The translations under genes were made by a program, and so were the position numbers. A DNA stretch of 64,000 nt from Candidatus Poribacteria bacterium (GTDB lineage: Bacteria; Poribacteria; WGA-4E; WGA-3G), in NCBI GenBank assembly GCA_965205015.1, contig OZ242029.1:4416001-4480000 (forward strand). Direction: 5' to 3'. This document shows, one piece after another, positions 22,154 through 49,306 of this stretch. The number at the start of each line of letters is the position of its first letter. Within the stretch, counting starts at the first letter, position 1. A model generated the notes under the pieces. It made no database searches. It had not been told where the DNA came from and saw only the letters and a list, made by a program, of their open reading frames with translations.

Positions 22154-23278
22154 TCAGTCGAGCGGATTGTCCGCCTCAAGCACGCGGCGTGCCGCAGCGG
22201 AGAGCCTGCCTTCCGCCGCGGCCCGTTCCACCCAATGGGTAGGTATGCCATTTGTCCACTTGGCTGGGCTTGCGTCGGGGTCGGGTGTCCGATACGCGAT
22301 CAGCAAACCCCATCGGGTTGGGGTTCCGGGCTTGCGATGGCCGACATGATGCGGCATGTGATGCGGAAACGAGACCATGCTCCCGGGCGGTAGCGAGAAG
22401 CGTACCATTTCCAACGGCTTGCCGGTGAAGGCGTGGATCTTTCCCTTCAGCCAGCCCGCTTTCATGGCGGCGTCATCATCGGGTCGCTCGGTGCTCCATT
22501 TGTACGGAATGCGGTAGAGATGGGCGCCCGGGATGACCCCAAGCTCCCCACCCTCCTCGAGGGTTGCACCTTCTGGATAGCAGAGCGTCCGAATACACTG
22601 CCGTTGCAGAAACTCGGTGGTCAGGGCGTGTCCGGTACCGATCGGATCTTCGACCTCGTACTGCCCCTGCCGATACTGGTGCGCATGCCACCGCCGTCCT
22701 ATTGAGCCCGGCGTCCGGTTGAGCATGTTGCAGTGGTCGAGGATGAAGCGGTCACCGAAAAGTTTGGTGAAAAGCTCCATCATCTGAGGGTGGGCGGTAG
22801 CGACATCCCTGATGAAGTCGTCGTATCCAATCGAGAAAAATTCCGGCATGACGCCCTGCGACGCGTACCCGCGTGTCACCAACGCAGGACCTGGGCCGAA
22901 CAGCCCGTGGTCGCGCATGTATCCAAGCAGTCCTCGGGGTATGAAGCGCATCTGCTCTGAGCCCCCGCAACACGTCGCCAAAAACTCCGGGGTGATGTGC
23001 TCCGGCAGCGGTGGCTGTAGCCCCCGGCCCGCGAAGTCGATGGCAGCCCAGTCGGTGTCCATGACAATCTCATCGTTCATCTGCTGTAACTTCTGCAAGC
23101 TCTCCGTCCACCGCTTGCGGCCAGCATCGGTCAGTATACCCTCCCACACCCAATAGCCTTCGCGCTCAAAGAATGTGCGGTCAAATGCCTGAAGCACTTC
23201 CGGCCGCAGCAGGTCATGCACGCGGCTTGCTGGGACGACGGTGTCGGTTTGACGCCGATGTATAGATGCTGTGTCCAT
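22154..23278 (-). CDS. PhyH-like 2-oxoglutarate/Fe(II) dioxygenase fold protein
   Basis: FFEREGY, RRWHAH, GELGVIPGAH, PGSMV-x-F-x-x-x-x-PH; visibly GC-richer than neighbours. Confidence 0.7.
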   Translation of the reverse strand: MDTASIHRRQTDTVVPASRVHDLLRPEVLQAFDRTFFEREGYWVWEGILTDAGRKRWTESLQKLQQMNDEIVMDTDWAAIDFAGRGLQPPLPEHITPEFLATCCGGSEQMRFIPRGLLGYMRDHGLFGPGPALVTRGYASQGVMPEFFSIGYDDFIRDVATAHPQMMELFTKLFGDRFILDHCNMLNRTPGSIGRRWHAHQYRQGQYEVEDPIGTGHALTTEFLQRQCIRTLCYPEGATLEEGGELGVIPGAHLYRIPYKWSTERPDDDAAMKAGWLKGKIHAFTGKPLEMVRFSLPPGSMVSFPHHMPHHVGHRKPGTPTRWGLLIAYRTPDPDASPAKWTNGIPTHWVERAAAEGRLSAAARRVLEADNPLD

Positions 23279-23307: not shown

Positions 23308-24915
23308 TTAGTGATTGGCCAATACAGAAGAGCCAACGGTATCAATGGCAGTGCTAAATCCTGGACCTCCAGCCGCCACGTAGCCATCGCTGGCGCCTGT
23401 TAAATCGGGACTGACCCAGAAGGAATATAACTGTCCGTTTGTTAAATAAAACCTAAATTTCACCGGCTTACCCGTTAGAGAAGATACATCGTCTCCTGTT
23501 TTCCACCTGACGAATTGACAGGTCGTATCCTTGCTGATGGGAACGCAGTTTCTATGGGAATATGGTTCAATCACATTGCCTTGATCGCCTAAAATTTCAA
23601 CTTGGAGCATACCCTTTTTTGTATTCGTATTCACAAAAAGATGCTTGCCCTTATTAAATATCATGGGCTTCGTTGTTAAAGATTCAGTCGATAAACCGGC
23701 ATTCATGGACGCAAAACCGTCTCGGCGAAGGATTGCGAGTCCCGTCGTACCGCCTGCATACATATGTCTACCGAGTGTCGGTGATTCTCCCGACCAGGCG
23801 CCAAAATAAAAGTAAATCTTATCCTTCACGACCAAACATCCACCCCCTGCCGCATGGATATAACCCCTATTCCAGGTGCCTTCCTGTCGCGATCCGGCTA
23901 TAAAAGGACTGCGAACAGGTCTATGCCAGTGGAAACCATCGCGGCTATACCCTAACACCAGTTCATTCGTCTTAGGGAATCCCCCTATGGCACAGAGTTC
24001 ATTGGGTGGACCTTTAAAAATTGCAAACAAGCCCAGAAGCACGCTCTCATAGGCAACTGCGTTAACGTCATAGAGCTGAGGTGCGTATCCGAGGTCAGGG
24101 TCCGCTGGGTCGAGTTCATCAGCTCTCGTCCAGAATACCACATCTTCCTTCTTCCATGAACCGCCTTTGATAAAATCCTCGTGTTCGCGATAACTTCGGG
24201 TGCGTCCCAGCGTACGATTCGAGGTCCGAATACTGTAAACCCACTTTTTCCTGAAGGCATTATAGAAGAACGTCGTATTATCCCCACAAGGACCCGTTTT
24301 GACGGGCTGCCCCCAGTGGATACCATCAAATGAGGTATAAACTTCCCCGCCTGACCAGTCAGGAGAACGGAAGTATGCAAACATTTTAAACCTTTGATCC
24401 GGGTCGTCTGTTTCGGGGTCTAACCAGACTGCGACTCCATCTCGCCGATATCCTTTCCTTACCGGAAGGACCCTGTTCGTCGCTGGCGCTACATCTAACA
24501 TGGGTCTATGCCAATGTAAGCCATCTTCACTGGTTGCATACCCCAGACCATCGAACCATCCCGCATGATACCACATTTTAAATAACTGTTCTTCGGCATC
24601 ATAAAAAACGCCGTCATTGAACGGAGAGGCAACCGGATATTTCCCATTATTGATCTCCAGTTGCGTTTCAGGCTTTAAAATCGGATTACCTTCATATAAG
24701 CGTGGGGTGTGAAAATCCCTTTTTAGATCGGTATTTTCAATGAGAAAGTCATCTACAAACAGTTGTCTTCCCTTATCTATATAAATAACTGTCGGGGGAT
24801 TTTCTAAGTATGGTACTGAGATAGGTGAAAGGGTTGTGTCACACAAATTTCGTGGGGGCCACTCTTCCGGCAGACGAATTCCATTATATAGAATTTCTTT
24901 CTCATTATTTTCCAT
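23308..24915 (-). CDS. GH32/43-like five-bladed beta-propeller glycoside hydrolase
   Basis: RQLFVDDFLIE, FKMWY, SEDGLHW, SRDGFHW, LRRDGFAS, VKFRFYL; visibly AT-richer. Confidence 0.8.
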   Translation of the reverse strand: MENNEKEILYNGIRLPEEWPPRNLCDTTLSPISVPYLENPPTVIYIDKGRQLFVDDFLIENTDLKRDFHTPRLYEGNPILKPETQLEINNGKYPVASPFNDGVFYDAEEQLFKMWYHAGWFDGLGYATSEDGLHWHRPMLDVAPATNRVLPVRKGYRRDGVAVWLDPETDDPDQRFKMFAYFRSPDWSGGEVYTSFDGIHWGQPVKTGPCGDNTTFFYNAFRKKWVYSIRTSNRTLGRTRSYREHEDFIKGGSWKKEDVVFWTRADELDPADPDLGYAPQLYDVNAVAYESVLLGLFAIFKGPPNELCAIGGFPKTNELVLGYSRDGFHWHRPVRSPFIAGSRQEGTWNRGYIHAAGGGCLVVKDKIYFYFGAWSGESPTLGRHMYAGGTTGLAILRRDGFASMNAGLSTESLTTKPMIFNKGKHLFVNTNTKKGMLQVEILGDQGNVIEPYSHRNCVPISKDTTCQFVRWKTGDDVSSLTGKPVKFRFYLTNGQLYSFWVSPDLTGASDGYVAAGGPGFSTAIDTVGSSVLANH

Positions 24916-24956: not shown

Positions 24957-26408
24957 TTATTGCTCATACATTGGATTTGGGGGTATGCCCTGATCTCTGA
25001 ATCGCCGGTAATCTCCGCTCCGAATGGGAATAAAATTACCGCGGATGCCGTAGATCCTGCCGTTGAAGAGTTTTACCTCGAGCCGCACCACCTTCTCCAT
25101 AAATTCTGAGACGGATGGGTGATTCTTCCACTTTGGTTTCCAAAAGAGATCATCACCCGTAAACGGTATGCAATCTTCAAAGGTATAACCTGGGTGAGGT
25201 TTCCCATCTGGATCTGTTATCTGAACCCGGACTTCCCCCTGAGGGACCTGGACGTTGAGGGTGAGTTCTTCACCGTGGACGAAGAACAGCCGCGTCGTAA
25301 AAGATCCTGGACCGCCCTGCGGTTCAAAATAGGAAAATCCATCGAGCCTTAACTCGTGGGTTAATATTGCCCCCTCCCCTAAATCCGGACGTGCGTGGAT
25401 CTGGGCGTGTTCTCCCTTTGAGGCACTGGAATAGATCCTGATCTTTTTGTCTTCCGTAATGACCATACTCGATGGGTAGATACAACCATACCCGAATTCA
25501 CCCGGCTCGGCGTTCGGTAAAAACGGCTCTCTGAGGGCTCGCTGGAAGTGCAACCCATTATAACTGTAAGATAGTTGACACCGCACCTTCCCATGTATGT
25601 ACTTATTCGGGCTGTCAACAATCGGGGACACTTGATATATCCACAGGAATCCGACAAATATGCGCTCATAGGGGAAAACGGGCATACCATAGACCTCAGC
25701 GGCTGGCGTATCCTGGGCATCAGTCCGGATAGCCACTTCGGGTTGGGAGAAGGTACGCCAATCCTTGGTTTCATAAACCGAGATCCGGCGATCTCCGCCT
25801 TTCGGCCTTGCTGCAATAACGTAGCTCCCCCGGATAGGGTTCCAAAAACCCGATACCGCCGGGTCTATTCCAAAGGGGTGCCACTTGGCATCTTCGATGC
25901 GTTTCCAAGATAAACCATCGGGTGAAACATACAAAGGAGAGTGGCTTTGGGAGCCTTTTTTTACGTTACTGGCACTGACAAAAGCCTTAATCCGCTCAGC
26001 GGCGTTATCTGTATGGGCATCAAAGAAACACGGACCCCATTCGCCGAACCCTTCAAGCGGAAGAATCTGGTGAGAACACGCACGATCTGGGATTTGTATT
26101 TTATCCGATAGGTCTACAATCTCCCATCTGACGCCATCATCGCTTTCGATGGCTACCGCGACGTGCTGCATCCGACGGCCTGGCCTTGCGTATTGCGTAT
26201 CGAGTTGCCCCTGATACAGACACCGCCAGCGACCGGTATAGGCGTCTACAAAGACAGTTGGATAGCCCCAGGAAGGATCGAGATGCGGGTCGATAAATAT
26301 CCCCTCAGTTACTAATTGAGGACGTCCGACATGACGGACGAGGTTTTCTCGGCGATGCAGGTACCAATCGTCAAAAAAGAGTAGGGTCGAACTCCCGTTA
26401 GTGTCCAT
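24957..26408 (-). CDS. GH32/43-like beta-propeller glycoside hydrolase
   Basis: LFFDD, SDDGVRW, SPDGLSW, YGMPVFPY, LRLDGF, LTLNV. Confidence 0.78.
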   Translation of the reverse strand: MDTNGSSTLLFFDDWYLHRRENLVRHVGRPQLVTEGIFIDPHLDPSWGYPTVFVDAYTGRWRCLYQGQLDTQYARPGRRMQHVAVAIESDDGVRWEIVDLSDKIQIPDRACSHQILPLEGFGEWGPCFFDAHTDNAAERIKAFVSASNVKKGSQSHSPLYVSPDGLSWKRIEDAKWHPFGIDPAVSGFWNPIRGSYVIAARPKGGDRRISVYETKDWRTFSQPEVAIRTDAQDTPAAEVYGMPVFPYERIFVGFLWIYQVSPIVDSPNKYIHGKVRCQLSYSYNGLHFQRALREPFLPNAEPGEFGYGCIYPSSMVITEDKKIRIYSSASKGEHAQIHARPDLGEGAILTHELRLDGFSYFEPQGGPGSFTTRLFFVHGEELTLNVQVPQGEVRVQITDPDGKPHPGYTFEDCIPFTGDDLFWKPKWKNHPSVSEFMEKVVRLEVKLFNGRIYGIRGNFIPIRSGDYRRFRDQGIPPNPMYEQ

Positions 26409-26674
26409 GAGATTTTCTCCTTAATGCGTCAGAAATCTTTAGGGCAGTGTTCTCTCCATGCCTTTCGTGGGCTATCAGAAGAATGGATCCGGGAAAGGGA
26501 TGTCAACCCCAAAAGGAAATGCAGCGCGGGATTACAAGCTCAGAGGCGAAGCGGGAGAATGTGAAGTTAACCGGGAAAGTAAGAAAGCGGTGAAACCTCC
26601 GCCTTCTCACTTCCAAAACTCGGCTTATGCGCTTCGCGGAGCATCCAATCTGCCGTTCGCGCCATAAGTTTCGT

Positions 26675-27487
26675 CTATTGGGAAGCCTGCTTAACCTGAC
26701 CCCATGTGGTCGTGAGGTGCCCCAATGGCGACACTGGGAGAAATTCCTCCATATTATTCATGACCGTCTCGATATCGTCTTCATCCAGCTCGCCTTTGAA
26801 AACGGCGACCTCGTCAATGACGCCGTTGAAAAATGAACCGCCTCTGTGATCACCCATGCTGACGCCGATTGCAAAGCCATTCTCGTGATCAATGCTACCT
26901 TTGACGGAGCTATGGTCAATCGGGTTTCCCTGCTGTTCTCCATCGACGTAGACATATCGCTCACCCTTTGTTCTGCTAAAAACCACCGCAAGATGATGCC
27001 ATTTCCCGTCGTCAAGACCTGCGCCTCTGTTGTCACAAACTGTGACAGGTTCAGTCTGCAGTCAGGTCCTGATCTGTCCGCCGCCGCTGAACTTGACTTC
27101 AAACCCAGTCCAGTCTCCAGCCAGCCGTGTTTTACTCATTACGAAACCCGTGCCCGTATCCGTTTTAAACCAAGCGGTAACAGTAAAGTCGGTCTTATCG
27201 CCGAGTTCAAACGCCTTCAGTTTGTCAGCACTTTCCGTCTCGACCGAGGTCCCGCTGCCATCAAATTCCAGAGCACTGCCGAACTTACCTTCAACCCATT
27301 TCGGTCCAGCTATGAGCTCGCCGTCATTGCCATTGGGTGAGGAATCTTTAGCGACATTTCCTTTACCTTCGTCAAAGAGCCACACCCCGATTGCGTCATC
27401 TATGCTCACTTCAGCTGCGCTGAATAACGGAAACGCAGAAGCCAGACCTACGTAAACCATGACATTTATCACCAATACCCGTATCAT
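26675..27487 (-). CDS. Secreted LamG-like protein, 270 aa with in-frame TGA at codon 142 (candidate selenoprotein; alternatively a nonsense pseudogene)
   Basis: ORFs 27062-27487 and 26675-26986 are in the same frame, joined by TGA plus 25 sense codons (LQTEPVTVCDNRGAGLDDGKWHHLA) that supply the LamG DGKWHH motif; AAGGAGG RBS; tail VSPLGHLTTTWGQVK. Confidence 0.8.
27019..27061 (-). promoter_or_regulatory. Candidate bacterial SECIS element
   Basis: Directly 3' of the UGA: CUGC-aga-CUG-aacc-UGUCACA-GUU-UGUGACA-a-CAG-aggc-GCAG; apical GU begins 21 nt after the UGA. Confidence 0.55.
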
Positions 27488-27554
27488 TGAGAGTTCCTCC
27501 TTACTTTCTGAGATAGAATAGAAAATGGAAAAACCGTCCGCTTACGGCTTAATC

Positions 27555-27731
27555 TTACCTTATAGTAATGGCAAGATTACCATACAGTTTGACAACCGTA
27601 ATGAAAACTGCCAGCCCCTGCATCAGGGTTCTCATATCAGCATCGGATAGAGCGATGTTGCAGAGGGCGACCGCATTGATGACTCTGTTGAAAAACGATC
27701 CTGCTCTGCGATCCCCCAGACTCACGCCACC
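27555..27731 (-). pseudogene. Degenerate 3' fragment of a LamG paralog
   Basis: Translates GVSLGDRRAGSFFNRVINAVALCNIALSDADMRTLMQ...YGNLAIT, aligning to GVSMGDHRGGSFFNGVIDEVAVFKGELDEDDIETVMN...LGHLTTT of the adjacent gene. Confidence 0.7.
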
Positions 27732-27764: not shown

Positions 27765-27793
27765 ATTATACCGAACTCGATATATAATGTCAA
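27765..27793 (-). promoter_or_regulatory. Consensus sigma70 promoter
   Basis: TTGACA-17 nt-TATAAT on the minus strand, pointing toward the TGA-containing LamG gene. Confidence 0.75.
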
Positions 27794-29926: not shown

Positions 29927-29968
29927 AAAATTGTGTTCGCTTTTATCCCGAAGTCGCGTCACTATATA
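29927..29968 (+). promoter_or_regulatory. ECF-type promoter motif, copy 1
   Basis: AAAATTGTGTTCG-N15-CGCGTCACTATATA upstream of an ECF gene. Confidence 0.55.
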
Positions 29969-30008
29969 CCAAATACTACACGAAGCACTTTCCTTTTCGA
30001 GGTTTTTG

Positions 30009-31590
30009 ATGAAAAAAGATTATACCGAACTGATCCAACGCACCCTTGAAGGCGATAATGATGCTTTTGCCTGCTTGGTTAGAAAGTACCAGAAGAGGGT
30101 TCACGCGCTCGCATGGCGGAAAATAGGAGACTTCCACATTGCTGAAGATATTACACAAGAAACGTTCCTACAAATCTATCGGAAATTGCCGACCTTGAAA
30201 GATCCGTGTCGGTTTCCGGGGTGGCTTTATGTTATCACCAATCGTCGCTGCCTCGCGTGGCTCCGCAAGAAACGGATTCAAACGCAACGCTTGGAGGAGA
30301 TAGATACAGCAATGTCAGAGAAGACATCCTATTCCAGACATATCGCTACAGAGCAGGCGAAAAATGCAGCGGAAGCACAACGCGAACTTGTTAAAAACTT
30401 ATTGGCGAAGTTGAAGGAAAGCGATCGGACCGTCATAACTCTCTACTATTTGAGCGGGATGACTTATGCAGAGATAGGTGAGTTTTTAGGTGTGTCAGCG
30501 GATACCGTTCGAATGCGGGTCCGCCGTGCGCTGCAACGCTTAAAGAAGCATGCCCCGCTGATTCGAGAAGCACTCGGTAGTTTCCAACTGTCTCCCAATT
30601 TAACTGAGAATATCATGCGTGAAATTCCGCGTATCAAACCCCTACCTCCTACTGGAGGAAAGCCACCGGTTGTACCGTGGGCAATTGCCACCTCGATCGC
30701 CATTTGTATTGTAATAATGCTCGGAGCCAGCAACCAATACCTAATGCGTTTCCAACAGCCCTACAGTTTTGATGCCACATCCGAAATAACGGTGGAGCTT
30801 ATTGATAGCCCCTTTATTCTTGATCTCTCACCAAAACCAGATGTGCGAAATCAGTTTGGAAATTCCGGTATACTTGGTCAGCATGATAGTACTGGTAAGA
30901 AACTTGAAGATATTCTTGAATCACACTTCAATGCTATGGGTGGTCTAACACGGCTATCCAAGATTCGGAGTTTAAAACGTTCCGGTCCCGCACAACTAAC
31001 GCAATTGAGCGGGCGACCTACAAAGTTCCTAGGTATGGTCGAAATAGCAACAGTGATTGGAAAAAAGTCTTATCTCAAACTCGACTTCGGGAAGTTCTTC
31101 AATGAGACGACTGTTCTGGAACGGCATAGAAGGTTGGAAATCCATTTTGAAATCCACTGTATACGATGACACAAGAGAATTGTCAGCAATGGAACTTGAG
31201 ATTGCTAAACAGAGAGCCTATATCACACCGTTTCAGCGAAGTTACGAACAACACGGCGGCAGTGCGTTTAAACAACGCGAAGACGAGACGTTCCAAGACA
31301 AGGAATGCTTCGTGATTCAGATCATTGGGGTAAAAGGTGTAGAGAACATTTTCTATTACATCGACAAAAAATCCAACCTACTTATTGGAATTAAAGCCCC
31401 GAACACTGATTCTACCTTTAACAGTGATACTGTGATTATTCATTTAGGTAATTACGCTAAATATAATGGTGTAATGTTCCCCAATTTCCGGCAAGTGTCT
31501 ATCGGGAACAATGAATTAAATGCCAATTACACTTTTACAGAGACAGAAATTAATGTTACGTTGGATGAGACGATTTTTGAGAAGCCATAA
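30009..31590 (+). pseudogene. ECF sigma factor with TM and LolA-like/outer-membrane-lipoprotein-sorting C-terminal extension, frameshifted near 31116
   Basis: Region 2 AEDITQETF, region 4 TYAEIGEFLGVS; FFNETTV joins WNGIEGW of ORF 31057-31590 if one base at about 31116 is removed. Confidence 0.7.
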
Positions 31591-31660
31591 CAGTGGCATA
31601 AGCATTGTAGAATAAAAATTTGAGTTCTGTTACGAGAACGCCGTAAGAGGTATCTTTCAC

Positions 31661-31707
31661 TGGCGAGGTTGGCAAGAACCCTCACGCTGTGCTTTTTAAC
31701 CTCGCCA
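31661..31707. repeat. REP-like palindrome
   Basis: TGGCGAGGTT...AACCTCGCCA, perfect 10-bp arms; related to 33124-33173 and 42515-42537. Confidence 0.6.
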
Positions 31708-31746
31708 CCTACCTTCTTTTTCATCCTCGATCCCAACTCACTGTCC

Positions 31747-31791
31747 AGAATTATGCACCTATTCACCCGTAATTCGCGTCATTATATAGTG
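31747..31791 (+). promoter_or_regulatory. ECF-type promoter motif, copy 2
   Basis: AGAATTATGCACC-N15-CGCGTCATTATATAGTG. Confidence 0.65.
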
Positions 31792-31895
31792 TGGTGTGGA
31801 TGGATAGGCGTTCTTCGCGCTTTATAAGCGTCCGCACCCGCAAAACGTGTAAGTTATTAAGCTGCTAATACAAACAGCCTTTCTGGAGATGTCTG

Positions 31896-33110
31896 ATGAA
31901 AAGTGATGATGTTGAATTGATCCAACGTATCCTTGCTGGCGATGAGACTGCCTTTGCAAACTTAATCAGAAAATATGAACGGCAAATCCATGCGTACGCC
32001 TTACGAAGGATCGGAGATTTCCACATCGCCGAAGATATTACACAGGAGACCTTCCTGCGCGTCTATCAGCACTTGAAAACCCTGAACGATCCGACCCAGT
32101 TTACAGGGTGGCTTTATGCGATTGTGAATCACCTTTGTATCGCATGGCACCGGAAAAATCAGCTACAGACCCAACCGCTGGAAGAAACCCACATTTCGGA
32201 AATAGAAAGAGAAGCGTATTCCCGATATATTACGACGGAACATGCGAAGACGATTACCGAAGCACAGCGCACTCTCGTCGAAAAACTTCTTACAAAGTTA
32301 AAGGAAAACGATCGCGAGGTTATTACACTCCACTACTTTGAAGAGATGACCTCTTCAGAGATAGGAATGTATTTAGGTGTATCCGAAAATACCATTAAGA
32401 GTCGGCTACACCGGGCGAGACAGCGGTTAAAGAAGTACGAATCTATGATTCAAGAGATGTTAGACATTACGATTGAAGGGGAACACCGTTCCCGAAACCA
32501 GTTGAAAGGGGAAATGAGTGTGACAAAAGAAGCTAAAGATGAAGCCAAAATCGAAGCAAGGCTGAAGAAACTACAGCGTCAGATTGCTGATCTGCAAGAA
32601 GAAATTAAGGTTATCGCAGCTGAATCAGACACTTTTCACCCTGATAACATGGAATTCCTTGATCCGGAAAAAAGTGTAGCTCTTAGGACGTTATGTCGCC
32701 TCTCCGATAGTGATGAAAGGGCAATTTCGTGGGGTTATGTCGGCGGCTATCGGACCTCTCCCGGCAAAACAACTGCCCGCGTTGCATTCTGGGGGGATAA
32801 CCTCAATAGTTTCCTGACGAAAGCACCAGACACTGAAATCGTGAATCTTGCAAGTCTCTTCACAAATCCCACGATAGTTGCCGTTTTAAGACAATTAGTA
32901 GCAGGGAAGCAATCCATTGCGGATCTGGCAAACAGGTGTGACCTCTCTGAAAGTGAAGTAGGGAAAGCCGTGGAGACGTTAATGGAAGCAACCTTAGTGG
33001 TACGCACGGAAAACGATCTCATTGAACCGAAAAACGATGTCGTTTCCTTCTTCCTGAACTTTGTGAGTATGACAATCGTACATCTCGGGCACATCAGACC
33101 TGAGAATTAA
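31896..33110 (+). CDS. ECF sigma factor fused to coiled coil and ArsR-like winged helix
   Basis: AEDITQETF; EIGMYLGVSENTIKSRLHRAR; C-terminal NPTIVAVLRQL...SIADLA...L-x-x-x-x-LV. Confidence 0.88.
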   Translation: MKSDDVELIQRILAGDETAFANLIRKYERQIHAYALRRIGDFHIAEDITQETFLRVYQHLKTLNDPTQFTGWLYAIVNHLCIAWHRKNQLQTQPLEETHISEIEREAYSRYITTEHAKTITEAQRTLVEKLLTKLKENDREVITLHYFEEMTSSEIGMYLGVSENTIKSRLHRARQRLKKYESMIQEMLDITIEGEHRSRNQLKGEMSVTKEAKDEAKIEARLKKLQRQIADLQEEIKVIAAESDTFHPDNMEFLDPEKSVALRTLCRLSDSDERAISWGYVGGYRTSPGKTTARVAFWGDNLNSFLTKAPDTEIVNLASLFTNPTIVAVLRQLVAGKQSIADLANRCDLSESEVGKAVETLMEATLVVRTENDLIEPKNDVVSFFLNFVSMTIVHLGHIRPEN

Positions 33111-33123
33111 ACTTAGTTCTCAC

Positions 33124-33173
33124 TGGCGAAGGTCTTAGAAGAACCAAAACTCGGTTTTTTCTGACCTTCGCCA
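33124..33173. repeat. REP-like palindrome
   Basis: TGGCGAAGGTC...GACCTTCGCCA, 11-bp arms just after the stop codon. Confidence 0.6.
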
Positions 33174-33234
33174 CTGCAACGCCATATCTTAGGCAAACCT
33201 TCTAACAAATATTTCCTTCCAAACCTATTTTTCC

Positions 33235-33278
33235 AAAATTATGCACCCTTTTCTCTCAATTCGCGTCATTATATAGTG
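33235..33278 (+). promoter_or_regulatory. ECF-type promoter motif, copy 3
   Basis: AAAATTATGCACC-N14-CGCGTCATTATATAGTG. Confidence 0.65.
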
Positions 33279-33382
33279 AAGCGAATCAATAGGAGGTTTC
33301 TTTGTGCTCCATGCGTGCATCTATCAGCGAAACGGGCAATTGCACAGGACCCGTGGTAAAATAGTCTTTCTGGAGATGTCCA

Positions 33383-34558
33383 ATGAGAAATGATGACGTT
33401 GCCTTGATCCAGCGTATCCTTGCAGGTGATGAATCTGCTTTTGAAAATTTGATTAGAAAGTACCAGAAACAGGTTCACGCGTTCGCATTTCGGAAAGTAG
33501 ATGATTTTCAGACCGCCGAGGATATTACACAGGAGACTTTCCTGCGCGTCTATCAGAAACTTGCAACGCTAAACGACCCAGCAAAATTTTCAGGGTGGCT
33601 CTATGCGATTGTGAACCATCTGTGTATCGCATGGCACCGAAAAAACCGGTTACAAACTGAGTCGCTGCAAGATATCCATATCTCGGAAATAGAGACAGAT
33701 GCGTATTCTCGATACGTCGCCGTAGAACACGCAAAAACGACTGCTGAGGCACAACGTGCCTTGGTCAAAAAGCTGCTTACCAAGTTGAAAGAAAGCGATC
33801 GCGAGGTTATCACACTCCACTACTTTGAAGAGATGACATCTTCGGAGATAGGGATGTATTTAGGTGTGTCTGAAAATACGATTAAGAGTCGACTTCACCG
33901 CGCTCGACAGCGGTTAAAAAATTACGAGTCTGTGATTCAAGAAATGTTAGACATTACAACTGATGGGGAACATCGTTCCCAAGACCCGTTGAAAGGAGAA
34001 ATTAACATGGCAGATGCAAACAAACTCACGGCAGATCTTGAAGACATACAGCGTCAGATTGCCGATTTGCAGGAGCAAATTCAGGTTATCGCAGGTGAAT
34101 CGGATGCCTTTCTTAGCGCCGAAAAAAAAGAAGCAGTGTCAACATTATGCCGACTCCCCCATAATGCTGAAAGACCCATCACCTGGAGCTACGGGGGCAG
34201 CTATCGCACCCGCGCCGGAAAGATGTGGAAACGTATCTCACTCTGGACAGATAGCATTGACGATTTCATATCTCGAGCACCGGATGACGCGATTGCGAAC
34301 CTCGCTAATATCTTCACAAATCCGACTGTCGTCGCTGTTTTAAGACAGTTGGTGGAGGGTAAGAAATCGGTTGAAGACTTGGTACACGGATGCGACACCT
34401 CGGAAGGTGAAATAGAGAAAGCTGTGGAAACCTTAATAGACGCGCAGTTAGCCGATCGCACGGAAGACAATCTCATTGAACCCAAAAACGATGCCGTGTT
34501 CTATTTTCTGAATTTCGTAGGTATGACAAGAGTCCATCTGGATCCAAAAGACCACTAA
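33383..34558 (+). CDS. ECF sigma factor fused to coiled coil and ArsR-like winged helix (paralog of 31896)
   Basis: Highly similar to the preceding gene over its whole length. Confidence 0.88.
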   Translation: MRNDDVALIQRILAGDESAFENLIRKYQKQVHAFAFRKVDDFQTAEDITQETFLRVYQKLATLNDPAKFSGWLYAIVNHLCIAWHRKNRLQTESLQDIHISEIETDAYSRYVAVEHAKTTAEAQRALVKKLLTKLKESDREVITLHYFEEMTSSEIGMYLGVSENTIKSRLHRARQRLKNYESVIQEMLDITTDGEHRSQDPLKGEINMADANKLTADLEDIQRQIADLQEQIQVIAGESDAFLSAEKKEAVSTLCRLPHNAERPITWSYGGSYRTRAGKMWKRISLWTDSIDDFISRAPDDAIANLANIFTNPTVVAVLRQLVEGKKSVEDLVHGCDTSEGEIEKAVETLIDAQLADRTEDNLIEPKNDAVFYFLNFVGMTRVHLDPKDH

Positions 34559-39752: not shown

Positions 39753-40574
39753 ATGGCAATTTTAACACAAGCACACCGTGAACACTTCGACGCATACGGC
39801 TACATGGTCATTGAAAATGCCGTTCCAACTGAACTTTGCGATGAAGTCGTCGATGCAATCTTTGCGTTCTTAGAAATGGACCCTTCAGACCCAAATGGCT
39901 GGTACCGCGCCCCTCACAAACCCGGCGCGGGCATGGTGGAGATGTACCAACACCAAGCCATGTGGAACGTCTATCAACATCCACCGATCCATCAAATCTA
40001 TACCGAGGTCTACGGCACCCACCGGATTTGGGTACACCCCGACCGCGTCAACATGAAACCCCCGAAACATCCCGACTATCCTGACTGGGATCATAAGGGG
40101 ATGTACCACTGGGATGCGGACACCTCGAAACTACCAATCGGTTTCGGCACTCAAGGTGTCCTGTTCCTGACCGACACAACCGATAATCAGGGGTCTTTTG
40201 TGTGCTGGCCCGGCGCACATAAGTCGCTGATTGACAAGGAAAACCCATGGGTACCAGAAATTTCGCCGGAACATTTCATTCAAGTGCCTGCGAAGGCGGG
40301 TGCCTTGCTTATATGGCATAAAGCACTTCCGCACGGCAATGGTCGCAACACCTCCGACAAACCACGGCTGGCGCAATACATGAACTTCTATCCTGTCCCT
40401 GACCCAATAGATGAGGAGCGACGGCAAGAACGCATTACACTATGGCGGGAGCGGAGAGCATTGGGACGAGGTCCCTATCCAGGCGACCCACGCGGTTGGG
40501 AAGCGAAGAACTATGGACCGGCAGAACTGACATCCTTGGGACGAAAACTGCTGGGACTTGATGTATGGGACTAA
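39753..40574 (+). CDS. PhyH-family dioxygenase
   Basis: HFDAYGY, HWD, PGAH, WHKALPHG. Confidence 0.9.
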   Translation: MAILTQAHREHFDAYGYMVIENAVPTELCDEVVDAIFAFLEMDPSDPNGWYRAPHKPGAGMVEMYQHQAMWNVYQHPPIHQIYTEVYGTHRIWVHPDRVNMKPPKHPDYPDWDHKGMYHWDADTSKLPIGFGTQGVLFLTDTTDNQGSFVCWPGAHKSLIDKENPWVPEISPEHFIQVPAKAGALLIWHKALPHGNGRNTSDKPRLAQYMNFYPVPDPIDEERRQERITLWRERRALGRGPYPGDPRGWEAKNYGPAELTSLGRKLLGLDVWD

Positions 40575-41374
40575 TACTTCTTTATCATTGCCCAACTCGT
40601 GGCTAATTTCCCTTGCGGGTCCACACCGAGTGCTGCTTGTAATCCGTTGTCCATGATTGCCTTAATCTGTTTTTCAGTCAAATCCACGTTGAAAATAGCG
40701 ACCTCATCGAAAAGACCGAACATAAACTGGTGGTGTGCCAGAAAATCACCCATGTTAACCTCCTGGTCCTTAGCATTCGTGTCCATTGCCTGATCGCCGC
40801 CTTCCTTGCCCTGAAGTTCACCATCAACATAGAGGTCATGATCTTGCACGGAGTCCGAACCTTTGGGAAAGACGACCGCCATGTGATGCCACTCTTTATC
40901 ACACACGTCGTCTGCTCCGTAATTTTGCCCTCCAGCAACCTCAACCCTCAAGTTGCACTCCGCACCCCGTAGGTGCGCACGGACGTAGTATTTTTCTCCC
41001 GTCAGGTTTGGTCCCCATTTTACCCACGAATGCTCTCTTGTATCCCCGGCTTTAAACCAGAAGACCGTCGTCCTCGGATCTGTGCCACCAATCCCTGCGT
41101 AACCCGTAACAATCAAATTGTCATCTTTGCCATCGTAGTCCAGACACTGCCCGAACACACCTTTGGTGTATTTCGCACCACCAGATATCTCCCCGTCTCG
41201 ACCGTTTCCAGAAATGTCCTTGGCGACGGTCCCTTTTCCCTCGTCAAAGAGGTATGCAACCTCAACAGTCTCGGGATCCAGTACAGCGGTATGGCTGGGA
41301 CTCGTAATCAATACTCCGAAAGTGACAACTATTAACCAAATCAGTGCCAAACCGGCTCGACCTTCAAGTTTCAT
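40571..41374 (-). CDS. Secreted LamG-like protein
   Basis: YLFDEGKG, EWHHMAV, GLFDEVAIFN; tail VDPQGKLATSWAMIK; ATG 41374 after GGGAGG. Confidence 0.88.
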   Translation of the reverse strand: MKLEGRAGLALIWLIVVTFGVLITSPSHTAVLDPETVEVAYLFDEGKGTVAKDISGNGRDGEISGGAKYTKGVFGQCLDYDGKDDNLIVTGYAGIGGTDPRTTVFWFKAGDTREHSWVKWGPNLTGEKYYVRAHLRGAECNLRVEVAGGQNYGADDVCDKEWHHMAVVFPKGSDSVQDHDLYVDGELQGKEGGDQAMDTNAKDQEVNMGDFLAHHQFMFGLFDEVAIFNVDLTEKQIKAIMDNGLQAALGVDPQGKLATSWAMIKKY

Positions 41375-41586
41375 TTTTCCCTCCCATGTCAAAAATACGA
41401 TTCAGATTTCAGACCTACACCCCACTATTTTAGTGTAGGATATAGAGTTGCTTTCGCATATCGATCTAAGAGTTTTCTAAAGAGGGGATTTTAGCAAAAT
41501 TGCGCAAAATAGGCAAGCGAAAAAGTAGGAGCAGCGTGCGACCTGAGTTGATTCTACGCAGTAGAGTCAGGTATAATATAATATGA

Positions 41587-47392: not shown

Positions 47393-49306
47393 TCATCCGG
47401 GTAAGGCACCTTGGTAGTTCACACCGGTAAACATCCCAACCACCATCCAAAATCCGACGATGCCAAACTCACCGATGATCAATCCCATAAACAGCGGTCG
47501 AAGCCTTCGATAGGATCCAATGCCCCCGGATTTTAATGCCAGATACTTCAAAAACCAGCCGATACATATACAGGACCAGAGGAAATAGGAGGAATACACC
47601 GCGCCCATCACATATCCAATCGGATGAAGGTGCCACCACATAAATTGACGCTGCATAATCAACAGGAATCCGGTGATGCCGGCTCCCAAAAGCATGCTGT
47701 ATGCCTCTCCCAATTTCGGGTCTTTCGGATACTGAATCAGGGAAACGATATGATTGAAGTATCTCGGTGCACCGGTAAAGGGACCCCTTTGCAGATTCAA
47801 GCCGCCCTTTTCATAAATTAAGGGCAGCGATGCCGCATAGGAGACGCCGATAGCAACAGCAATAGCCAGCACCATCGCACCGAGGACGCTTCTTCGATTT
47901 AATCCGACAGGATCCGCCGCTTTAAATCCGTGTAGAACGCTCGGCATTAAGATACCACCCCAGTCGCGCATCATTACCCGTTGGAACCCTAAGAGTGCCA
48001 AACTGTTCGCATTGATAATCCTTGAGCCGGCAGTAATCTCAAAGTATTCTACGGGATACATCGGTGCCTGAATCAGTAGCATACCGCCATTGACGACCAT
48101 CCACGACAGTGCCGTAGAAGCGATAAGGAACAGTGCAATAATGCTACAAGCGACCCAAAGCGACATCCCCGCGTAGACGCAGAGACCCGCAAGCAGCAGA
48201 AAACTAAACACCGTTCCCAGCACTGCCCATCTATACGGTAATACCTCATCTGAATCGTCGATCGTTGTGGAGGCAGCGGACGCCAGAAACGTCCGTCTCA
48301 GGAGATCCCTGATATGGCTCCGACTGTTAAGCAGGAAGGCGAGAACCATAACCACATAGGCAGCCATTGTTTGTCCTCTGGCAGAGATCCACGGACTGAT
48401 AGGGATCGCAAAGGCGTTGATGATAATGTACTGTAACTTGAAGAATAGGAAGAAAAACCAGCAACTGAAAGACACGTCCATGGCGAGAAAGTAGGTGATA
48501 CCGATAACCGAGAAATAGAGAAAGAACCGAAATTGGGGCCACCACCCCATCACAATCCAGGGACGCTCTGTGAAGGGAGTATACAGGTCATACCGATTCG
48601 GAATGCGTGGGAGTGCGGGGAAATACTCGTGTAGTCCATTGAGTAGATGAAAGAAGGCAGCGATTCCAAAACCTACCCACACGAGCCGATTCCTGAACAA
48701 ACTATCCAGACCGGCGTGCATTGAGGTCTGCTGAACCATCTCCACAGGCACCGTAACGAGTGGAAAGATGAACCTTTCGCGTTCAACCCACTGTTTCCTT
48801 ATCACAACCGATACGCAGATCGTCAGTGCGTAGAGCAGTAAGATGAAAACTGTCCAAACAAAGAGCGGTTTTGCCCAGAGTACCCACGGAACAACCGATT
48901 CCCCCTCATAGAAATCGATAACGGCATGTTCATCCCACACAATTAGCCATTCAGGGAAGTGCGGATGCAGCGTTTCTGCCCACTCATTCTCAGGTGTAGC
49001 GAAATAGACCGGTGCCGCCAGATAGGGGAGTAAGTATCCGATCATTCCTTTCGATGGAATCGCCGAACTGATGACCATCATCACCCAGACGATCATCAAT
49101 TCGCCCGGATTTAACACTGCTCGAGGAAAGGCTTTTTTCAGAATGGGATTGACGACCAGGGTGAGAAAAATCAGTGTAAACACCGTCCCCAAAGGAAAAT
49201 GGTTTCCGGCGATATCTGTTCCTTGGAGATAGTAGTCGTTATAGGGGGTAATTGCTGTCTGTATAATGACGAGTGCCAAACCGATCAGAATCGCTCTCAC
49301 GCTCAT
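47393..49306 (-). CDS. DUF6785/DUF6784-like polytopic membrane protein
   Basis: Paralog of 20056-22017: RKQWVERER-x-x-FPL, WW-x-LHPIGY. Confidence 0.8.
   Translation of the reverse strand: MSVRAILIGLALVIIQTAITPYNDYYLQGTDIAGNHFPLGTVFTLIFLTLVVNPILKKAFPRAVLNPGELMIVWVMMVISSAIPSKGMIGYLLPYLAAPVYFATPENEWAETLHPHFPEWLIVWDEHAVIDFYEGESVVPWVLWAKPLFVWTVFILLLYALTICVSVVIRKQWVERERFIFPLVTVPVEMVQQTSMHAGLDSLFRNRLVWVGFGIAAFFHLLNGLHEYFPALPRIPNRYDLYTPFTERPWIVMGWWPQFRFFLYFSVIGITYFLAMDVSFSCWFFFLFFKLQYIIINAFAIPISPWISARGQTMAAYVVMVLAFLLNSRSHIRDLLRRTFLASAASTTIDDSDEVLPYRWAVLGTVFSFLLLAGLCVYAGMSLWVACSIIALFLIASTALSWMVVNGGMLLIQAPMYPVEYFEITAGSRIINANSLALLGFQRVMMRDWGGILMPSVLHGFKAADPVGLNRRSVLGAMVLAIAVAIGVSYAASLPLIYEKGGLNLQRGPFTGAPRYFNHIVSLIQYPKDPKLGEAYSMLLGAGITGFLLIMQRQFMWWHLHPIGYVMGAVYSSYFLWSCICIGWFLKYLALKSGGIGSYRRLRPLFMGLIIGEFGIVGFWMVVGMFTGVNYQGALPG

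Follow-up and report, generated by a model that had tools for sequence, protein, structure and literature searches.

This study concerns a gene on the minus strand of a 64,000-nucleotide (nt) stretch of DNA from a Candidatus Poribacteria bacterium (assembly GCA_965205015.1, contig OZ242029.1, positions 4,416,001 to 4,480,000 of the forward strand), which we call the window and to which all coordinates refer. Two open reading frame (ORF) fragments, 27487..27062 (141 amino acids, aa) and 26986..26675 (103 aa), lie on the minus strand in a common frame, and between them stand a TGA at 27064-27062 and then 25 sense codons. When the TGA is read through, translation gives a product of 270 aa with a single recoded codon, U142. 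An earlier note, made from the sequence alone, had proposed that this codon specifies selenocysteine (Sec) in a secreted LamG protein, and the comparative data described below lead us to consider it very probable that the conserved UGA142 is read as selenocysteine and that the gene encodes a genuine selenoprotein. The features of the gene are as follows.

26675..27487, minus strand: proposed full coding sequence, 270 codons plus TAG (26677-26675), with UGA142 as Sec; signal peptide and a single Laminin_G_3 jellyroll (translation, Pfam, AlphaFold2).
27413..27487, minus strand: predicted signal peptide, residues 1-25, with a hydrophobic core and S-A-A ahead of the likely cleavage site (translation; cleavage site placed by eye).
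27062..27064, minus strand: in-frame TGA, codon 142, the proposed Sec codon, with C as the next base (sequence, orthologue alignments).
27035..27037, minus strand: TGT codon of Cys151, which we propose to pair with Sec142 in a selenenylsulfide; it does not vary among the 20 orthologues.
27031..27047, minus strand: candidate upper stem-loop of a bacterial selenocysteine insertion sequence (SECIS), UGUCACA-GUU-UGUGACA, with a 7-bp stem and a GUU loop (folding, orthologue comparison).
27496..27502, minus strand: ribosome-binding site AAGGAGG, 8 nt ahead of the ATG (read from the sequence; GGAG core kept in orthologous loci).

The coordinates and shared frame of the two fragments, the 25 sense codons between them and the ribosome-binding site at 27502-27496 are all as the earlier note had described them, and so is the presence of a LamG paralogue of similar length at 40571 (40571..41392; 273 aa against 270 aa, 31% identity to the read-through protein). 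The claim that read-through yields an intact protein also stands. The Pfam Laminin_G_3 match (PF13385; 4.9e-23, with 82.4 bits where the cut-off is 27.6) covers residues 94-239 and spans the UGA. The first in-frame ATG, GTG or TTG 3' of the TGA is GTG168, at 26986. In public databases, the exact two fragments of the window sit in protein clusters of 153 and 122 members labeled 'hypothetical protein', and N-terminal fragments of exactly 141 aa make up 14 clusters (79-89% identity), with one more of 142 aa. Thus, public annotation splits the gene in two.

The TGA is conserved among the orthologues in Poribacteria. Of the 175 Poribacteria species genomes searched, 18 carry an orthologue, at 88-94% amino acid identity, and each of these 18 copies is interrupted by a single stop, which is a TGA; the matches that rank next in the 175 genomes are ordinary paralogues with 39-42% identity and no internal stop. 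A scan of one genome per prokaryotic species found the orthologue in 15 Poribacteria genomes, and a metagenome scan found two further contigs, L078 and L079. Aligned as DNA, all 16 loci compared match the 813-nt gene without gaps and at 92-94% identity; in each, codon 142 is TGA and the frame is next stopped at codon 271. Contig L079, which is more distant (77% amino acid identity), likewise has TGA at codon 142. The question raised at the outset, whether this column is TGA in several genomes, is therefore answered by all 18 species genomes and by both contigs. The claim that the gene bears no other lesion holds as well: none of the 20 unique orthologue sequences has an indel or a stop besides the TGA. 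Laminin_G_3 matches in the complete sibling genomes G001, G002 and G004 number 97, 90 and 87, mostly open frames of 250-300 aa, and among 150 matches listed from these three genomes, with 124 further matches outside that list, stops occur only in the three orthologues. These numbers show that small LamG proteins of one domain have multiplied to a very large extent in sibling Poribacteria genomes, and labels in a protein atlas assign the wider LamG family mostly to Poribacteria, which we take as a lead only.

The codon is supported by independent sequencing as well. The stretch, or part of it, occurs in at least 20 sequencing runs from 10 studies, mostly sponge metagenomes. Read support for the TGA, another of the checks proposed earlier, comes from an independent run (X1, from a study other than that of the possible source sample) with a contig identical over 26400-27660. 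Contigs from RNA libraries (X16 record 15 and X20 record 21) bridge the TGA; stretches left uncovered in such contigs, for example 26400-26650 in X15 and X16, were not taken as transcript ends.

The region downstream of the TGA evolves as coding sequence. We compared the 20 unique orthologue sequences, whose pairwise nucleotide identity is 92.1-98.6% (differences of 1.4-7.9%) over 190 pairs. The ratio of nonsynonymous to synonymous substitution rates (dN/dS) is 0.261 upstream of the TGA (codons 2-141) and 0.196 downstream of it (codons 143-270), with a value of 0.029 in codons 143-158. Variable sites 3' of the TGA number 25, 14 and 57 of 128 at codon positions 1, 2 and 3, respectively, and 41 of the 76 variable downstream codons show synonymous changes only, compared with the 21.6% expected for random single-base changes (P = 7e-10). 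Judged by these substitution patterns, the part of the gene 3' of the TGA is translated in frame and under purifying selection. The 25 codons between the TGA and GTG168 share this constraint (9 invariant, 11 with synonymous changes only and 5 with amino acid changes), and a restart at GTG168 cannot account for their conservation.

Uninterrupted homologues show which amino acid takes the place of the TGA. The nearest uninterrupted homologues, P0002-P0008, are 51-74% identical to the read-through protein and 265-270 aa long, and all seven carry Cys at the TGA column, an outcome in favor of Sec on a check that the earlier note had named; the same seven also carry Cys at the Cys151 column. In an alignment of 118 sequences, Cys is found at columns 142 and 151 only in eight sequences each (P0002-P0008 and the query, with Sec at 142), and the other 110 aligned family members have neither Cys. 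Columns 142 and 151 thus go together. The Cys-form subfamily, in which the cluster of P0002 has 90 members, shares with our gene the signal peptide, the Laminin_G_3 layout and the C-x8-C pair, but its members are uninterrupted ORFs with Cys rather than TGA, and it has no match in the 175 Poribacteria genomes: a search of these genomes with P0004 returned only the 18 TGA orthologues and one paralogue of 40% identity. A tblastn search with the central 100 residues against the more distant loci found no member of the C-x8-C subfamily either.

The machinery for selenocysteine insertion, for which the earlier note had suggested a search, was examined in five complete sibling genomes that carry the orthologue, and all four components are present in each of them. 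tRNA-Sec scores 78 bits against a cut-off of 47 and is assigned the anticodon TCA by ARAGORN; selB, with 346-354 bits (cut-off 242), directly adjoins it; and selA (593-601 bits, cut-off 268) and selD (355-365 bits, cut-off 125) are both found, the latter with one in-frame TGA of its own. The selD selenoprotein motif is VKCAGUASKL, and a small hairpin lies 16-17 nt 3' of its UGA (loci L158-L162, L166-L170 and L176-L180); the hairpin of G004 differs from that of the other four genomes. More broadly, 162 of the 175 Poribacteria genomes have a selA that scores above its cut-off, among them 17 of the 18 with the orthologue, so that Sec decoding looks nearly universal in Poribacteria. One report from 2026 places Poribacteria among the phyla with Sec-containing group 4 hydrogenases (PMC13582414). 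Transfer RNA and Rfam scans of the 64-kb window itself returned nothing, a result that is uninformative for a piece of this size. We also considered a reassigned genetic code in which TGA is a sense codon and rejected it because TGA terminates 8 of the 41 window ORFs of at least 200 aa. A script identified 12 other single-TGA read-through candidates in the window, the longest of which, at 47393, is antisense to another gene.

Directly 3' of the UGA, the messenger RNA can fold into a candidate SECIS hairpin. The earlier note had described a 7-bp UGUCACA/UGUGACA stem capped by GUU at 21 nt from the UGA, standing on two short lower stems. The upper element is confirmed: its stem starts after 14 nt, its loop lies 21 nt 3' of the UGA, and the Cys151 codon falls in its 3' arm. 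According to a 2026 review (PMC13188914), the model for bacterial SECIS (bSECIS) elements requires a loop of 3-9 nt, a stem of 4-16 bp, a G in the first two loop bases and a spacing of 16-37 nt; a further criterion is a minimum free energy (MFE) at or below -7.5. The hairpin, with its stem of 7 bp, GUU loop and spacing of 21 nt, lies within the geometric limits of this model. Its stem is complete in 18 of the 20 unique orthologues and in L079, and the MFE of the 48-nt segment ranges over the orthologues from -9.1 to -13.8 kcal/mol. By the same measure that gives -6.7 kcal/mol for the isolated hairpin here, the selD hairpins of the sibling genomes give -3.0 in four genomes and -7.4 in one, so that the candidate is at least as stable as the selD hairpins of four of the five. 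The hairpin is compatible with the bacterial SECIS model, and by itself it is weak evidence.

The 5' leader of the gene contains three further features, one of which serves as a control for the integrity of the gene itself.

27531..27550, minus strand: terminator-like hairpin of 7 pairs (3 G-C), followed by a T-run; it separates the relic from the gene (sequence scan).
27555..27728, minus strand: relic inside the 5' leader that preserves, in decayed form, the C-terminal third of a further LamG paralogue (tblastn, 45% identity to residues 208-261).
27765..27793, minus strand: sigma-70-type promoter-like site TTGACA-17-TATAAT, 12 of 12 positions, ~278 nt 5' of the ATG (sequence scan).

The relic lies 70 nt upstream of the gene. 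Relative to L005, this 171-nt sequence carries 1- or 4-nt indels, cannot be aligned or is missing in 13 of 17 loci, and in the same loci the 813-nt gene is without any indel. By this pattern of decay, the relic is a true pseudogene and serves as an internal control for the intact gene beside it. Contigs from RNA libraries cover the relic. The perfect promoter that the earlier note assigned to the gene does exist, and its TTGACA hexamer is invariant over the aligned orthologous loci, with the -10 hexamer mostly retained; it lies, however, well upstream of the start codon, beyond both the relic and the terminator-like hairpin, and not close to the gene. The terminator-like hairpin is not significant, with one such site in the region compared with 2.0 expected. 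Beside it, just upstream of the ribosome-binding site, a direct duplication of ~27 nt is present in 9 of 17 loci (L015, L004, L002, L007, L001, L014, L008, L010 and L078) and, in the alignment, is absent from the window.

Several observations weigh against reading UGA142 as selenocysteine, and many of them concern the hairpin. Of the MFE values, the -6.7 kcal/mol of the isolated stem-loop is weaker than the limit of -7.5, and those of the 48-nt segment are stronger. The fold stands out only modestly from chance: z is -1.96 for the 81-nt segment, and 7 of 200 shuffled sequences fold as well. An equally good SECIS-type hairpin stands at 63 of the 2289 TGA triplets of the window (2.8%). The stem is invariant except for one uncompensated change and shows no covariation or compensatory change; L187 has only six pairs, and L012/L197 have an uncompensated U-to-C mismatch. 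The lower stems of the earlier note, CUGC/GCAG and CUG/CAG, fold in the window and are not conserved in orthologues. Conservation of the hairpin was judged on TGA-bearing copies only. Other points concern the genomes and reads. Evidence for the Sec machinery comes only from sibling species, whose sequence at this locus has 92-94% identity to that of the window, and G130, an orthologue-bearing genome fragmented into many contigs, has no selA match. Among the rows of read differences listed, none falls at 27062-27064, and 62 further difference rows exist; the RNA-library contigs indicate presence of the sequence and are no proof of transcription. One partial variant of the Cys lineage (P0010/P0124) has Ser at column 142. 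There is also a frameshifted copy, P0011 (Logan assembly, 241 aa), which is 88% identical in its N-terminal part, shifts frame after residue ~121 and passes through the TGA region in another frame; it represents a pseudogene at strain level or else a misassembly. Finally, the incorporation of selenium is itself a prediction.

These points bear on the rival explanations to different degrees. Some of them would suit a gene in which UGA142 is passed without selenocysteine, either by a near-cognate tRNA (Trp, Cys or Arg) or with termination on most occasions and full-length product on a minority. The base after the UGA is C, and work in E. coli points to UGA-C as the weakest termination context; the statistically undistinguished hairpin also fits. 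Yet this explanation leaves aside the full Sec machinery of the sibling genomes, the finding that Cys, the sulfur analogue of Sec, occupies the exact column in homologues and is paired there with Cys151, and the retention of TGA in 18 species though it is one base away from a Cys codon. We therefore regard non-Sec read-through as unlikely. The public annotation, which calls exactly the two fragments, invites the alternative that the gene is truly split, so that an N-terminal polypeptide of 141 aa and a C-terminal one begun anew at GTG168 come together in a single jellyroll. The strong purifying selection on codons 143-158 (dN/dS 0.029), and the synonymous-only changes in 11 of the 16 variable codons between TGA and GTG, speak against such an arrangement, as does the fact that a product begun at GTG168 would lack Cys151 and the WHH motif, both common to the uninterrupted homologues; we consider a split gene very unlikely.

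A nonsense mutation that turned the TGY of a Cys codon into TGA and left a pseudogene, or else a mistake in sequencing or assembly, might be suspected from the single base that separates a Cys codon from TGA, from the decayed LamG relic that adjoins the gene and from the frameshifted P0011. Conservation effectively refutes both possibilities. Among 20 unique orthologues that differ from each other by up to 7.9%, the gene has acquired neither an indel nor an additional stop; its downstream part remains under the constraint described above, whereas the true relic next to it has indels or is absent in most loci; and the TGA recurs in independent assemblies from several studies. We judge this explanation extremely unlikely, and the reading of UGA142 as selenocysteine remains the one that we favor.

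The predicted structure suggests how the residue might be used. AlphaFold2, given the 118-sequence alignment, returned an all-beta jellyroll domain with a mean confidence (predicted local distance difference test, pLDDT) of 85.1 and a predicted template modelling score (pTM) of 0.82; pLDDT is low across residues 1-30. Predicted strands 138-144 and 149-154 form a hairpin in which residues 142 and 151 are in register if 144 pairs with 149. The model thus suggests that Sec142 and Cys151 are opposed across a beta-hairpin in the geometry of a cross-strand disulfide, here a selenenylsulfide, so that the U-x8-C pairing proposed in the earlier note is compatible with the predicted fold, although the pairing itself is a deduction from it. 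We think it somewhat more probable than otherwise that an Se-S bond joins Sec142 and Cys151. A Foldseek search yielded 356 matches in the PDB at E <= 0.001, of which the best listed are concanavalin A (ConA)-like domains with 12-18% identity; the neighbors include lectin-like jellyroll subdomains of large toxins and sialidases and an accessory domain of GH43. Matches to the jellyrolls of clostridial neurotoxins and NTNH reflect the generic ConA-like fold and do not speak for a toxin function. The fold suggests binding sooner than catalysis. Our protein belongs with the Laminin_G_3/ConA-like superfamily by its hidden Markov model match above the cut-off and by the same predicted jellyroll; unlike our protein, the 110 other aligned members of the PF13385 family have no Cys at columns 142 and 151. 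The C-terminal tail (26675-26740, 20 residues) follows a consensus found in most of the 118 aligned family members, AVSPxGKLxTTWGxIK, in which W262 never varies and K266 hardly does, and is modeled with pLDDT of ~41-44. It may be a sorting or docking signal common to the ~90 paralogues per genome.

From the sequence and the predicted structure, we infer a pathway in which the hairpin acts as the SECIS, the protein is exported and an Se-S bond forms and affects the domain. Translation would start at the ATG at 27487, and at UGA142 the hairpin would recruit SelB and Sec-tRNA(Sec), so that selenocysteine is inserted in place of termination and translation runs on to the TAG at 26677-26675. The N-terminal signal peptide of the 270-aa precursor would then direct export, leaving a mature protein of ~245 aa that would be a single ConA-like jellyroll and the sole Sec user among ~90 paralogues per genome. 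Within it, Sec142 and Cys151 on adjacent antiparallel strands would most likely form an intramolecular selenenylsulfide, the counterpart of a disulfide in the Cys homologues. Our guess is that this bond would act as a staple within a ligand-binding domain, either sensitive to redox conditions or resistant to reduction, and not as a classical oxidoreductase site. A bolder proposal, which we put forward as a speculative and rather unlikely one, is that selenium here acts outside catalysis altogether: the cross-strand selenenylsulfide of an exported lectin-like binding protein would serve either as a reduction-resistant staple or as a reactive Se-S 'hook' that exchanges with thiols of a ligand, be it one of the host matrix or a glycoprotein.

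The neighboring genes are unrelated (an esterase, DUF6785, a phosphodiesterase, extracytoplasmic function (ECF) sigma factors and ABC-2 permeases), and no redox partner is evident among them. Three consecutive genes of ~400 aa at 29931-34558 on the plus strand each begin with an ECF sigma-factor domain in about the first 200 residues and continue in long C-terminal extensions without a Pfam match; two ABC-2 permease genes follow. Downstream of the gene, the intact minus-strand ORFs at 24957-26408 (483 aa), 22154-23278 (374 aa) and 23308-24915 (535 aa) had no Pfam match at the thresholds used.

The bacterial selenoproteins known so far are, to our knowledge, redox enzymes in nearly all cases, and their Sec is part of an active site of the UxxC type. 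Our gene shares with selenoproteins that depend on SelB and a bSECIS, such as SelD of Poribacteria itself, the in-frame UGA, a candidate stem-loop with a loop G within 16-37 nt, Cys homologues and, in sibling genomes, the presence of SelA, SelB, SelD and tRNA-Sec. Unlike them, it would place Sec in a lectin-like jellyroll rather than a thioredoxin-like or other redox fold, and its U-x8-C pair, set across a beta-hairpin, is unlike the UxxC and CxxU motifs of known selenoproteins. The earlier note had held that no such selenoprotein family has been described, and our searches agree. In NCBIfam, the sole hit was TafC, whose score of 36 bits lies far below the cut-off, 410. The terms LamG, laminin, concanavalin and lectin do not occur in the main texts of PMC13188914, PMC13326102 (BSepDB), PMC12013277 (deep-Sep), PMC2398784 (GOS) and PMC9312934, whose supplementary tables may list more families, and PF13385 does not occur in the main text of PMC13188914. 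Full-text literature searches found nothing relevant for selenoprotein with LamG and none for selenocysteine with Laminin_G_3, and for Poribacteria with selenoprotein or selenocysteine the relevant match was on hydrogenases only. It is thus most likely that the gene represents a new selenoprotein family that uses an established mechanism (SelB and a bacterial SECIS), the new aspects being the lectin-like fold and the U-x8-C hairpin pair.

Exported selenoproteins are not unprecedented. DsbA- and DsbG-like proteins, an outer-membrane beta-barrel and a TonB-dependent receptor are described in PMC12013277, PMC2398784 and PMC13188914. The closest precedent in kind may be the predicted secreted trypsin-like serine protease selenoprotein of the GOS data (Table 4 of PMC2398784), which is likewise exported, belongs to a family without known redox function, has Sec in place of a conserved Cys and is far outnumbered by its Cys homologues; it is a protease of another fold and not a binding domain, and the likeness is one of description. 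Any surprise at a new family is also tempered by the fact that new bacterial selenoprotein families are still reported regularly, nine of them by deep-Sep (PMC12013277).

In summary, a Sec/Cys pair in an exported lectin-like jellyroll, found in 18 species of an uncultivated phylum of sponge symbionts, would widen the range of folds and cellular locations in which selenium is used. It would also offer a natural comparison of Sec with Cys inside one subfamily, correct the annotation of the gene as two 'hypothetical proteins' and show Poribacteria to be a phylum-wide user of Sec. Our work is relevant both to selenium biology and to the biology of sponge symbionts. If the non-catalytic reading were true, this would be the first selenoprotein with a ConA-like fold, and Sec would have a structural or adhesive role here, as it rarely does in bacteria; one of ~90 paralogues per genome would have converted a Cys to Sec and kept it across the clade.

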